DNA of 30,722 nucleotides, from UHGV virus genome UHGV-0024034; one strand, written 5' to 3'. The translations under genes were made by a program, and so were the position numbers. The DNA comes from a virus. Shown in pieces: positions 3 to 30,722 of the stretch (the stretch's first letter is position 1; each line of letters begins with the position of its first letter). The notes under the pieces are model-generated. The model saw only the letters and a list, made by a program, of their open reading frames with translations, did no database searches and had not been told where the DNA came from.

Positions 3-32
3 TAAAAAAGGGCCAGCCAATTGGCCAGCCCT
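3..32 (-). terminator. Rho-independent terminator, probably the original host rplS terminator now separated from the gene by the prophage
   Basis: On the minus strand: 10-bp stem (8 Watson-Crick plus 2 G-U), 4-nt loop AAUU, followed by a run of six U (plus-strand A-run at 4..9). Confidence 0.55.
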
Positions 33-63
33 TCTTAACAGGATGTCGCTTAAGCGAAATCTT

Positions 64-76: not shown

Positions 77-157
77 CTATTAACACCCCACAGCGAACAA
101 ACACTTACCATATAAAACAACTAGTTAAAGTAATTTTTAATGCAGTGAATTGCAGTG

Positions 158-1207
158 TTATGCAACCTCTGCCGCCACATTGTCGCCAACATACAGCGAT
201 AACGGATTGAGGGTTACAGCTTGTTCAAGGTGGTCAGGAGCAAAGTGCGCATACTTCATTGTTTCTCGAATATTGGCATGTCCGAGAATTTTCTGCAGCA
301 CCAGTATATTCCCTCCGTTCATCATAAAATGCGCACCAAAAGTATGACGCAAAACGTGCGTCTTCTGCCCTTCCGTCAATTCAATATTCGTTAGTTTGAG
401 CATCTTTTTAAACTCCTGATAGCAGGGTTTAAACATTCTGCCTTGACGTACGGACAACTCGTCGTACAGCCATTTAGGAATAGGAACTGTGCGATTCTTC
501 TTACCTTTGGTTTTGGTGAACGTTAGTTTATATGGAGAAAGTTGAGGTCGGGTCAATCTCTCCGCTTCCCCCCATCGAGCGCCGGTTGCAAGGCACACCT
601 TAACAATCATGGTGAGGTCTTCTTTGCCGTATTGCTCGCAGGCTCGAAACAGCTCCGGGAGCTGAGACAAAGTTAGCCAGGACATTTCTTTCTCAGCTTC
701 TTTGAATACTCGGATCCCATCAAGTGGATTGGGTAGGCTCCACTCCCCTAACCGGCGGAGCTCATTAAACACTGCTTCTAGGTATTGTTGTTCGCGATTG
801 ACGGTTATAGGTTTGGCGATCCATTTCGAGGGGTCTTTATGATAACCATTGTCTATTTCACCACGTAATCGACGGTCACGATAATGAGCCCAGTCTTTCG
901 CGGTAAGGCGAGATGCAATCGGGTCGCCAAGTCCATTACATACGATTTGAAGCTTTGCAAATCTCGACTTACTGGCGACTAACGCTTGACCGTGCAAATT
1001 GTGCCAAAGCTGAATAATCTCGCTTAAGCGTCGGCGGTCTTCTTTCTTGCCGAGCCACGGCTTATCTTCACTCTCGCTTTTGGTAAATGCTTCAAATGCC
1101 TCGGCCTCACCTTTGGTATTGAACTGCCGACGTATACGCCGCCCTTCTCGACCATTTGGATAGAGTTCACACAACCATTTTCCACTTTTTTGTTTACTTA
1201 CAGTCAT
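158..1207 (-). CDS. int: Tyrosine integrase, P2 Int-like
   Basis: 349-aa ORF; N-terminal GRxGxRIRRxF and C-terminal HxLRHTFxxHFMMNGG...YAHFAP motifs typical of the P2 integrase family; adjacent to attL. Confidence 0.95.
   Translation of the reverse strand: MTVSKQKSGKWLCELYPNGREGRRIRRQFNTKGEAEAFEAFTKSESEDKPWLGKKEDRRRLSEIIQLWHNLHGQALVASKSRFAKLQIVCNGLGDPIASRLTAKDWAHYRDRRLRGEIDNGYHKDPSKWIAKPITVNREQQYLEAVFNELRRLGEWSLPNPLDGIRVFKEAEKEMSWLTLSQLPELFRACEQYGKEDLTMIVKVCLATGARWGEAERLTRPQLSPYKLTFTKTKGKKNRTVPIPKWLYDELSVRQGRMFKPCYQEFKKMLKLTNIELTEGQKTHVLRHTFGAHFMMNGGNILVLQKILGHANIRETMKYAHFAPDHLEQAVTLNPLSLYVGDNVAAEVA
163..190. repeat. attP arm repeat (candidate integrase arm-type site), copy 1
   Basis: CAACCTCTGCCGCCACATTGTCGCCAAC, about 24/28 identical to 30542..30569 in the same orientation; overlaps the int 3' end. 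Confidence 0.4.
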
Positions 1208-1231: not shown

Positions 1232-1570
1232 TTAATTACAAAGGGCTGTAGCGGCATCAATCACCGGTGAAATTGAAATTTTAACGCCGTCATACTCAGG
1301 GTCATCCTTCCATACGTCATCTAAGTTAGACCCCTCCAGCTTTCCTGATTTAACAGCATCTACCGCCATGCCATTCAGAGGATATCTATCATCAGTTTTG
1401 ATGTCATACACAAAAGCATAAGCACGGTTAACACATGATACCTTTGCCTTTTCAAAGGTTAGAGGCCACTTGTCACCATATGCAGCGCCGTCTATCTCTT
1501 TAAACTTCTCAGCGGCTATGGCTGAGGAAGAAAGTGCAATGCAGACTATCGCAAATATAAACTTTTTCAT
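1232..1570 (-). CDS. Small secreted protein (signal peptide, two Cys), accessory gene downstream of cI
   Basis: 112 aa; N-terminus MKKFIFAIVCIALSSSAIA is a typical Sec signal peptide; GGAG Shine-Dalgarno 5 nt before the ATG, only 9 bp after the cI stop; locally AT-richer than the structural genes. Confidence 0.6.
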   Translation of the reverse strand: MKKFIFAIVCIALSSSAIAAEKFKEIDGAAYGDKWPLTFEKAKVSCVNRAYAFVYDIKTDDRYPLNGMAVDAVKSGKLEGSNLDDVWKDDPEYDGVKISISPVIDAATALCN

Positions 1571-1579
1571 TACTGCTCC

Positions 1580-2425
1580 TTAAACATGCTTTTCCAAAGT
1601 AAAAATAACCGCACCTGATGGTGTGATATCTGAAATATTACATTCAAACTCAGCAGACTTATTTGATAACCTGACCTTTCCGCCTGGCAACCTGATTACG
1701 TCAAAAACATCGAGTGCGCCATCAATACCAATAAGCCAGCGACCATTTCCTATCTTCGAGTTAGAACTATCAACAAGCCAAGATGTGCTCACACCATCAA
1801 TAAACACTAAATCATCAGTATTTGATGGAACCATAGATATATCAGGAGTCCAGCGTCCGATATCTTTGAGTTCGCCAGCCTCGAGGCGGCACTTTCTAAT
1901 CGTTAAAGCATTTGCCGGTTCACCATCATTACTGTTACGCATCTGGCCTTTTCCGGTTGATAACCATTCTAACGATACGCCAGTATCAAGGGCGCAAGTG
2001 ACAACCACGTCACCGGGGAAAAAATCGCGTCTAACCCAAGTGCTTATAGTGCCGGAAGATATACCTAATAAATCTCCAAGCTCTTTTTGCAGAGTAAAAC
2101 CATACGCATCGAGAATCCGACGCAGAACCGCCCTCCCTCCATTTGCCATGATTTCATCATAGAGTTGCTTACCTTTAAGCTTAGTTTTCACCACTTCAAA
2201 TCTTGCATTTGCAAGCTCACCATTAATTAGCCATCGCAGGTCAGCTCCAGTATCAAGAGCACACTCAACGAAAACGTTGCTAGGGATTACGTTTCTAGCA
2301 AGCCAGCTACTCACGTTGTTTGCATGTATGCCAAGCCTTTCGGCTAGTTCCTTTTGCTGCTTAAAGCCGTATGCAGAAAGGACACGTTCCAATGCGGCAG
2401 ACGCATTAACATCATTTTTAGACAT
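1580..2425 (-). CDS. cI: CI-type immunity repressor (186 CI-like) with tandemly duplicated N-terminal HTH domain
   Basis: Two internal repeats (..VLSAYGFKQQKELAERLGIHANNVSSWLARNVIPSNVFVECALDTGADLRWL.. and ..ILDAYGFTLQKELGDLLGISSGTISTWVRRDFFPGDVVVTCALDTGVSLEWL..) resembling the 186 CI HTH domain, plus a C-terminal domain. Start taken at Met-64 of the ORF-track frame, because the upstream part of the ORF runs through the promoter region. Confidence 0.8.
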   Translation of the reverse strand: MSKNDVNASAALERVLSAYGFKQQKELAERLGIHANNVSSWLARNVIPSNVFVECALDTGADLRWLINGELANARFEVVKTKLKGKQLYDEIMANGGRAVLRRILDAYGFTLQKELGDLLGISSGTISTWVRRDFFPGDVVVTCALDTGVSLEWLSTGKGQMRNSNDGEPANALTIRKCRLEAGELKDIGRWTPDISMVPSNTDDLVFIDGVSTSWLVDSSNSKIGNGRWLIGIDGALDVFDVIRLPGGKVRLSNKSAEFECNISDITPSGAVIFTLEKHV

Positions 2426-2475: not shown

Positions 2476-2538
2476 GGTGCTCACCGACCAAGATGCACAC
2501 CACTGCACTACATTTCAAACAACAGGAGATAATGCGAT

Positions 2539-2910
2539 ATGTCAGATGCAAAATCAATCTCGACGCACGACTCGCAAAACTCACAAAATCAAACTGTGCT
2601 GCTAGACCCAACACAGTTTGATGCCATCGTTACCGCCATGCTGCCAGCTCTACAGACAATGATTCGCTCCGCTATGTCAGACACGATGACTGTGAAAGAC
2701 TTCGCCGCTACTCGCGGTGTTAGCGAGCGTCTGGTCTGGCAATGGCTCGATGAGGGAGTCCTTCTCAAAGCTCCGACCAAAGACTTTTCCAACAAAGAGG
2801 AAGCTGCTAAACGAAGCCGAACCCTCGTAAATGTAAAAGCATGGCGCGATAAGCTGACTCAACAAGCGATTGATTGTCGCTACATCGACCAGCGCACCGC
2901 TCTTAACTGA
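2539..2910 (+). CDS. Apl/Cox-like excisionase and transcriptional regulator
   Basis: First rightward gene after the switch region; HTH-like segment TVKDFAATRGVSERLVWQWLDEGVL; AGGAG RBS about 10 nt upstream. Longer than 186 Apl, so the true start may be an internal Met. Confidence 0.55.
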   Translation: MSDAKSISTHDSQNSQNQTVLLDPTQFDAIVTAMLPALQTMIRSAMSDTMTVKDFAATRGVSERLVWQWLDEGVLLKAPTKDFSNKEEAAKRSRTLVNVKAWRDKLTQQAIDCRYIDQRTALN

Positions 2911-30281: not shown

Positions 30282-30500
30282 ATGATGCACTGCCCGTTAT
30301 GCCAAAACGCCGCACATGCTCGCACTAGCCGGTACCTTAGCACCGAAACAAAAGAACGTTATCACCAGTGCCAGAACATAAATTGCGGATGTACATTTAT
30401 CACTTTTGAGACGCTATCAAGATTCATTGTGAAACCGGGTACTGTTGATCCTGCTCCGCCACACCCCATCAGAAACCAACAACAGCAACTTTGGCTTTGA
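30282..30500 (+). CDS. ogr: Late gene activator, Ogr/Delta (186 B) family zinc finger
   Basis: 72 aa from MMHCPLCQNAAHARTSRYLSTETKERYHQCQNINCGCTFITFETLSRFIVKPG, near-identical in pattern to P2 Ogr; the ORF-track start at 30237 is an overextension. Confidence 0.9.
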   Translation: MMHCPLCQNAAHARTSRYLSTETKERYHQCQNINCGCTFITFETLSRFIVKPGTVDPAPPHPIRNQQQQLWL

Positions 30501-30522
30501 ACCTGCTTCGGCAGGTTTTTTT
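30499..30522 (+). terminator. Rho-independent terminator after ogr
   Basis: Stem AACCTGC/GCAGGTT with TTCG loop, followed by a run of seven T. Confidence 0.75.
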
Positions 30523-30541
30523 ATATCTGTCGCCATCGCTC

Positions 30542-30569
30542 CAACCTCTGCCGCCAATTTGCCGCCACC
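30542..30569. repeat. attP arm repeat (candidate integrase arm-type site), copy 2
   Basis: CAACCTCTGCCGCCAATTTGCCGCCACC; see copy 1 at 163..190. Confidence 0.4.
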
Positions 30570-30572
30570 ACC

Positions 30573-30610
30573 AATAAAGAAGGGGTTAGCAATTCGCTAA
30601 CCCCTTGTTT
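30573..30610 (-). terminator. Phage-supplied replacement terminator for the host rplS transcript (hairpin is bidirectional)
   Basis: Perfect 9-bp stem GGGGTTAGC/GCTAACCCC with a 5-nt loop (30582..30604), flanked by T-rich tracts on both strands; lies about 40 nt downstream of the host gene stop on the minus strand. Confidence 0.6.
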
Positions 30611-30644
30611 CATAACACGCTTTGGATGTAGCGCGAATACGTTA

Positions 30645-30722
30645 TCAGTTAAGACGCTCTTTGATACGAGCAGCCTTACCAGTACGCTCACGCAGGTAGT
30701 ACAGTTTAGCTTTACGAACAGC
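30645..30722 (-). CDS. rplS: 50S ribosomal protein L19, 3' end (partial; runs off the window)
   Basis: Minus-strand translation ...AVRKAKLYYLRERTGKAARIKERLN* matches the E. coli L19 C-terminus as I recall it; codon usage typical of highly expressed genes. Confidence 0.75.
   Translation of the reverse strand, partial: AVRKAKLYYLRERTGKAARIKERLN
30647..30659. repeat. attR core, 13-bp direct repeat AGTTAAGACGCTC
   Basis: Identical to 64..76; overlaps the last four codons of the host gene. Confidence 0.75.

Follow-up and report, generated by a model that had tools for sequence, protein, structure and literature searches.

Temperate phages leave a recognizable architecture around the point at which they integrate, and the window analysed here (the whole stretch of 30,722 nt of UHGV virus genome UHGV-0024034) carries a short repeat on either side of an attachment (att) core, near the integrase gene int at one end and the late activator gene ogr at the other. 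Which protein, if any, recognizes these repeats, and how much of them matters? A first-pass annotation of the window read them as integrase arm-binding sites of attP. By our own comparative analysis, the repeats very probably are Int arm-type sites of a 186/PsP3-like attP at rplS, split between attL and attR. The motif, its layout, and the kind of site are already known, as they have been described for 186, PsP3, and P2, and PsP3-type phages with identical sites have been deposited. The result confirms the prophage boundaries and the attP anatomy of a PsP3-like phage at E. coli rplS. It also provides a clean example of a gene whose 3′ coding end contains the (predicted) DNA-binding sites of its own product.

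The window is a complete 186/PsP3-like (Eganvirus, P2-family) prophage at the 3′ end of E. coli rplS, with short host flanks. A 13-nt exact repeat, AGTTAAGACGCTC, is found on the int side at 64–76 and again at 30647–30659, with this second copy extending over the stop codon of rplS, the host gene for L19 (minus strand). When positions 1–76 are joined to 30660–30722, the product has 100% identity to the unoccupied rplS site found in E. coli genomes. Because the joined flanks restore an intact rplS 3′ end, the two 13-nt repeats are the attL and attR cores, respectively. The reconstructed empty site is uninterrupted in 5341 of 5426 complete E. coli genomes; in the remaining 85, the rplS site is <80% covered by a single piece, which suggests that it is occupied in roughly 1.6% of E. 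coli genomes. A literature search on rplS with P2-like prophages found no paper.

At the right end of the window, the P arm of this attP is bounded by the ogr/pag late activator gene (30282..30500, plus strand; Pfam Ogr_Delta, E = 1.8e-20). At the left end lies int (158..1207, minus strand), encoding a tyrosine integrase of 349 aa with the N-terminal strand GKWLCELYPNG. The nearest deposited phages are vB_EcoM-613R3 (95%), SW9 and SI22 (91–94%), RCIP0057, Midge, and PsP3 together with SEN1, the latter two having 93% identity over the ogr-side arm. SW9, PsP3, and SEN1 belong to the genus Eganvirus, which is also the genus of coliphage 186; the records of Midge and RCIP0057 carry no genus. Within the int region, DNA identity is 86–95% for vB_EcoM-613R3, SW9, RCIP0057, and Midge; int of PsP3 and SEN1 is more divergent and was not retrieved by the int-region search.

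The most conspicuous feature of the two arms is a 15-nt exact direct repeat, CAACCTCTGCCGCCA, that starts at 163 and at 30542, one copy on either side of the att core. In their longer form, the blocks at 163–190 (CAACCTCTGCCGCCACATTGTCGCCAAC) and 30542–30569 (CAACCTCTGCCGCCAATTTGCCGCCACC) lie where the first-pass annotation had placed them, in the same orientation, with 24/28 positions identical and the first 15 exact. This 15-nt stretch is the longest direct word common to both 150-bp arms; the maximum in 2000 shuffles was 12 nt. The ogr-side block is 78–105 bp from the core, as had been reported. The int-side block is 87–114 bp away when measured from the exact 13-bp core; the earlier figure of 85–112 bp arose because a slightly longer core was assumed.

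The functional unit is shorter than the 15-nt repeat: it is the 8-bp sequence TGYCGCCA, arranged in tandem at 11 bp. This 8-mer occurs seven times in 30.7 kb (both strands), and five of these occurrences are in the two arms, all on the plus strand. On the int side, the predicted units are P′1 (TGCCGCCA, 170..177, inside int codons 344–346) and P′2 (TGTCGCCA, 181..188, 11 bp from P′1, int codons 340–342). On the ogr side, they are P1 (TGTCGCCA, 30528..30535, directly past the ogr terminator), P2 (TGCCGCCA, 30549..30556, conserved in relatives, including ogr-linked loci), and P3 (TGCCGCCA, 30560..30567, 11 bp from unit P2). The spacing of 11 bp in 170/181 and 30549/30560 corresponds to one helical turn. 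With the int stop at 158–160, the int-side units (170–188) occupy codons 340–346 of 349; the proposed overlap of the first repeat copy with the last int codons is thus borne out, and P2 has the same arrangement. The paired block of the earlier inventory is real, but the inventory lacked the third ogr-side unit at 30528–30535.

All five units read TG[CT]CGCCA, matching the 186-type consensus tgccGCCActt. None of them matches the strict consensus of the 186 record, YAYCGCCAYTY, as position 2 is G here and A in 186. Among the arm units, the relaxed form YRYCGCCAYNY matches 170–180 only, and it is not enriched window-wide. For these reasons, the 8-mer TGYCGCCA was used as the search motif. The P2-type arm motif TGTGGACA (tgTGGaCa) was also considered and is absent from both arms of the window attP. 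The 5′ part of the 15-nt repeat, CAACCTC, varies on the ogr side among relatives, and part of the long identity in the window phage may therefore be incidental; of the repeat as first delimited, it is the 8-mer core that is kept.

Comparison with the attP of related phages, which the first-pass annotation had put forward as a check, supports these units. In SW9, PsP3, SEN1, Midge, and RCIP0057, all five are invariant, while the flanking bases diverge (six aligned attP sites, including that of the window). On the ogr side, for example, CCAACCTC in the window is replaced by GCAATCTC or TAAAACTC in other phages. The unit at 30528–30535 is kept in 6/6 aligned attP sites and is also found in ogr-linked loci. 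More broadly, many phages have tandem pairs directly past the ogr terminator. This ogr-anchored sample is heterogeneous, as the strict-frame TGNNGNCA pair is present in only 19/53 distinct downstream regions, the others having looser P2-type or 186-type pairs, or extra genes.

The location of two units within int enabled a synonymous-constraint test, in which pairwise identity at third codon positions was determined for 22 distinct 349-codon int genes. This identity is 0.533 over the whole of int versus 0.864 for the final 10 codons, the highest of 340 windows. It reaches 100% at codons 340, 341, 342, 344, and 345, which are in or overlap the two units, compared with 68% at codon 346 (which includes the final two bases of the second unit) and 36% at the codon separating the two units. 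Judging from these third positions, the constraint at the int 3′ end is evidently one on the DNA itself.

The Int protein reflects this arrangement at its C-terminus. Its tail past ...LNPL (here SLYVGDNVAAEVA; window 158–190) consists largely of translated arm units, and where inserted ORFs separate int from its arm units, Int stops soon after LNPL (L016, L067, L078, L085, and L006, i.e. 186). As these tail-less Ints keep the tandem pair downstream (+278 to +1206), the tail seems to exist because the reading frame runs into attP, and not because it is a conserved functional part of the protein. Unrelated ORFs are inserted directly past the int stop, at the position of the window's P′ arm, in many relatives (L024, L039, L043, L044, L051, L055–L058, L067, L068, and L084–L086), which makes the position a possible cargo hotspot.

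The part of Int that would recognize the units is its N-terminal domain. Window Int and 186 Int are 51% identical overall and much closer across the first 40 residues, with W11, E14, and Y16 of the window protein located in GKWLCELYPNG, compared to GGWICELYPNG in 186. Candidate residues discriminating the Ints of the P2 and 186 groups have been proposed, namely Y/W, D/E, and R/Y (Nilsson et al. 2011, PMC3448106), and window Int has the 186-type W, E, and Y (alignment positions 16, 19, and 21). Pfam identifies Int_N (residues 57–169, E = 1.3e-30) and Phage_integrase in the protein, which also matches the HP1 integrase 1AIH by sequence (E = 2e-58). The N-terminal 56–62 residues match no Pfam family and no PDB sequence. 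In a single-sequence AlphaFold2 model of residues 1–75 (mean pLDDT 74.6), strands at 2–5, 11–15, and 25–29 are followed by a helix at 32–48, a modelled beta-beta-beta-alpha order as expected for an arm-binding domain. A Foldseek search of this model against the PDB returned no match with E below 1; the second-ranked match, the GCC-box domain of AtERF1 (E = 1.6, TM 0.41–0.47), is not significant.

Co-variation of the units with this N-terminal strand was followed across 80 viral-contig loci and reference phages (~85 related loci), whose counts are not independent events as the loci are relatives. Ints with a ..E.Y strand have a TGGCG-N6-TGGCG pair (int strand) in 42/47 loci, which is located at the int end in 37 and, in five loci including 186, 278–1206 bp downstream, past inserted ORFs. 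The other five of the 47 have no pair within the available DNA. Ints with a ..AQ.F strand are accompanied by TGGCAGCA pairs in 7/7 cases. For D-class Ints, a TGGCG pair is found at the int end in 0/33. Five of these have an identifiable int-end pair (three of the TGTCCACA type, which is P2-like, and two of the TGAC[AT]ACA type), and no pair was scored for the other 28, many of whose contigs end at the int stop. Furthermore, both arms switch type together. This is seen for the AQ.F type in L142 (an intact attP) and L148/L152 (two ends of one contig), and for the P2 type in L211/L273 (one contig, rplS site) and L268. The concordance of the two arms is drawn from viral contigs, since a phage-collection search for complete genomes with AQ.F- or D.FR-type rplS integrases found none.

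The arrangement of the units can be compared with that of the characterized relatives. A survey of the regulatory regions of P2-like phages, PsP3 among them, found repeats in all phages but one (Nilsson et al. 2011, PMC3448106). Two groups of repeats were distinguished, that of P2 (tgTGGaCa) and that of 186 (tgccGCCActt) (Nilsson et al. 2011, PMC3448106). The GenBank record of 186 lists "predicted" Int arm-type sequences, YAYCGCCAYTY, with three sites to the left of attP and two to the right. It places the terminator hairpin of the lysogenic operon between the left sites and the core; to the right, the interval from the core to the arm-type sites contains IHF footprints and five Apl sites. The window resembles 186 in its CGCCA-centred tandem units at 11 bp (in 186 at 1398/1409 and 1627/1638), of which three are on the B/ogr side and two on the int side. 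Both have a terminator hairpin that separates the left units from the core, and the IHF-like site and putative recombination directionality factor (RDF) repeats of the window, like the IHF and Apl sites of 186, fall between core and int-side units. In both phages, the int-side CGCCA pentamers begin at ~+103 and +114 from the middle of the core. The two differ in the start of the unit (TG in the window versus TA in 186), in the orientation of the third left-hand site (direct versus inverted), in the core (rplS 3′ end versus a tRNA-Ile gene), and in the RDF (a candidate RdfS-like protein with TGCA repeats versus Apl). In addition, the 186 units do not overlap int because Orf69 sits between int and the int-side units.

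PsP3, SW9, SEN1, Midge, RCIP0057, and vB_EcoM-613R3 have essentially the attP of the window (five units, TGCA repeats, IHF-like block, and core), with point differences only; the window copy sits in E. coli. In the record of P2, the ogr terminator is followed by the Int P arm, IHF, the core, the Cox boxes, and the Int P′ arm, the last of these inside the final int codons. The window shares with it the ogr terminator, P arm, core, RDF repeats (putative in the window), and P′ arm inside the int 3′ end, as well as 8-bp tandem units at 11 bp, with both motifs falling within the frame TGNNGNCA. The unit itself differs, being TGTGGACA in P2 versus TGYCGCCA in the window (relatives with D..R N-domains carry P2-type units), as do the Int N-domain residues (D and R in P2 versus E and Y in the window). 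Moreover, P2 has a single IHF site, on the ogr side.

Read from ogr to int, the window has the ogr terminator, three units, a minus-strand hairpin, the core, an IHF-like site, the TGCA repeats, and two units inside int. The IHF-like site AAACAACTAGTTA (115..127, plus strand) has one mismatch to WATCAANNNNTTR, belongs to a block conserved in all relatives, and is the positional equivalent of the right-hand IHF footprint of 186. A weaker IHF-like site is present at 30598–30610. The ogr terminator hairpin is located at 30499..30518 (plus strand) with a T-run to 30523, and the P-arm units start just past it, as in P2. A second, phage-borne terminator hairpin with a 12-pair stem lies between the P-arm units and the core (30580..30606, minus strand). 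It ends rplS transcription in the prophage, and would end the int operon in the free phage. Compared by eye with the host flanks of L028 and L052, the region 30570–30646 looks similar to the sequence that naturally follows rplS, terminator hairpin included; the host rplS terminator itself is displaced to window 8–34 and replaced by the phage-borne hairpin in the prophage.

With two units inside int and three just past the ogr terminator, the units might instead be mainly regulatory, serving Int autoregulation, acting as a roadblock at the end of Int's own gene, or functioning as CI or Ogr sites. We regard this as highly unlikely, given that the units co-vary with the Int N-domain and that cI regions differ among relatives with identical units. 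Int bound to the units may still have a regulatory side-effect.

A second alternative concerns the excisionase, and has to be weighed together with the other repeat of the int-side arm. Between the core and the int-side units, the window has three TGCA-centred repeats with 10-bp spacing (141..164, plus strand). Two are the TGCAGTG copies that the first-pass annotation had noted, 10 bp apart at 141–147 and 151–157; the third is a TGCA at 161–164 (TGCAACC). The array TGCA-N6-TGCA-N6-TGCA occurs once in the window versus 0.01 expected. The pattern TGCAS-N5-TGCAS has only two matches in the window, the TGCAGTG array and a TGCAC-N5-TGCAC pair at 2494..2508 (plus strand). This pair lies in the switch region, between cI and the first early gene, and is probably a second RDF operator. 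The first early gene (2539..2910, plus strand) encodes a 123-aa candidate excisionase and Cox/Apl analogue; the protein has no Pfam match, and the annotation of a near-identical Midge protein names it Cox and cites HHpred similarity to RdfS. In 21/21 loci with a homologue of this gene, ATGCAC-N4-yTGCA (with a spacer that varies) is found 45 nt upstream of the RDF-gene start.

CTGCA repeats by the int stop are present in loci with the RDF gene homologue, including those of the AQ.F type, and are absent from E.Y-type loci without a detectable homologue, although the 1.5-kb flank may miss the gene there. The TGCA array hence tracks the RDF gene and not the Int type, and its position is that of the Apl sites of 186 and the Cox boxes of P2. 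These patterns point, with moderate confidence, to the TGCA repeats being excisionase (RDF) sites. The TGCAGTG pair was rejected as Int sites, as the repeats follow the RDF gene and recur only in the lysis–lysogeny switch region. The original integrase reading therefore gains comparative support for the TGYCGCCA units and is given up for the TGCAGTG pair, which more likely is part of an RDF array.

Could the TGYCGCCA units, too, be bound by the excisionase or another accessory protein instead of Int? RDF sites in this family are likewise direct repeats about one helical turn apart that adjoin arm sites. We give this reading a very small chance nonetheless. The motif is common to 186, which uses an unrelated RDF (Apl) with separately mapped sites next to its CGCCA units, and relatives with a homologue of the window RDF and an AQ.F-type Int switch to TGGCAGCA, so that the unit motif tracks Int. 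Furthermore, a separate repeat, the TGCA triplet, tracks the RDF gene, and the units are found on both arms; RDF sites (Apl and Cox), by contrast, are annotated on the int side only in the records of 186 and P2.

That the repeat has no function at the DNA level, arising by chance, from coding of the Int C-terminus, or by recent duplication or gene conversion between the arms, is scarcely credible: the int-side copy is coding sequence and the exact 15-mer includes the CAACCTC that is unconserved on the ogr side in relatives, but shuffles of both arms never reach 15 nt, the ogr-side copies are non-coding yet conserved, synonymous positions are frozen within the units only, and Ints lacking the C-terminal tail keep a tandem pair at +278 to +1206.

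How Int would use its arm-type sites can be outlined by analogy. In lambda attP (P1, P2, and P′1–3), distant arm sites are bound by a separate N-terminal domain of Int, and IHF and excisionase bend the DNA; this heterobivalent mechanism is established for lambda. The lambda arm sites have mixed orientation and do not overlap int, and neither the sites nor the N-domain have detectable sequence similarity between lambda and the window. In the window phage, the Int N-terminal domain (~residues 1–50, including the strand GKWLCELYPNG) would bind the TGYCGCCA units, while the core-binding (Int_N) and catalytic domains of the same Int molecules would bind the core ~100 bp away. IHF, bound near 115–127, would bend the intervening 80–110 bp, thereby allowing one Int to bridge arm and core. 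During excision, excisionase on the three TGCA repeats (141–164) may add further DNA bending. We infer Int binding to the units and arm–core bridging from lambda and from the P2 record, which annotates Int binding at both P2 arms; the corresponding 186 sites are labelled "predicted".

The different unit types have a common frame, TGNNGNCA (ogr-to-int strand), that fits every one of them. The pairs of Int N-terminal strand and unit are CE.Y with TG(C/T)CGCCA, AQ.F with TGCTGCCA, D.FR with TGTGGACA, TDFL with TGTTGTCA, and CDFY with TGTAGTCA. Phages that target rplS carry at least three of these pairs and phages that target tRNA-Ile carry two, and the sharing of the rplS target by several pairs suggests modular exchange of arm specificity. 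On these sequence patterns, we see an even chance that the arm units and the Int N-terminal strand form a small recognition code, in which pairs would be exchanged as a module among integrases with the same core. The strand variants, of which there are at least five, are a modest extension beyond the two classes (P2 and 186) of 2011. If the recognition code is true, the Int substitutions C13A/E14Q/Y16F are predicted to shift binding from CGCC to CTGC units. Such putative specificity pairs of arm site and N-domain have a possible use in the design of orthogonal integrases.

The W.AQ.F / TGGCAGCA arm class is unnamed in the 2011 survey. It occurs with two core specificities, with both arms concordant: the rplS site (L028, L038, and L040–L042) and the tRNA-Ile site (L142 and L152). 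Attachment-site-like (attP-like) junctions with pair types that differ across the core are found in L030 (+189 past the int stop), L045 (+174), and L063 (+189). In L030, TGTCCACA/TGACCACG is on the int side and two copies of TGGCGGCA lie beyond the core. These junctions could be prophages from different phages in tandem at rplS, remnants, or hybrid attP sites. A different organization is seen in L402 and L347, where ogr is followed by a perfect LexA-box-like sequence, CTGTTTAAATATACAG. In L402, int is located downstream of this site and oriented as ogr, a gene order unlike that of the window.

The genes next to int show some further features. Within the switch region (2428–2538), the left half, with the promoter and presumed CI operators, differs among the window, PsP3, and Midge. 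The right 57 nt, including the TGCAC pair, and the next gene are nearly identical in the three, which suggests different immunities with a common RDF module. The CI repressor (281 aa, window 1583–2425, minus strand) contains two Phage_CI_repr helix-turn-helix stretches and a CI C-terminal domain. Its length exceeds that of 186 CI, which agrees with a published comment on PsP3, whose CI is described as longer (Nilsson et al. 2011, PMC3448106). Between int and cI, the window has a DUF2511 gene (1232–1570, minus strand), annotated in Midge as encoding a periplasmic protein. It is kept in SW9, PsP3, SEN1, and Midge, with an unnamed gene of equal size and position in RCIP0057, and is likely a lysogenic-conversion or moron gene.
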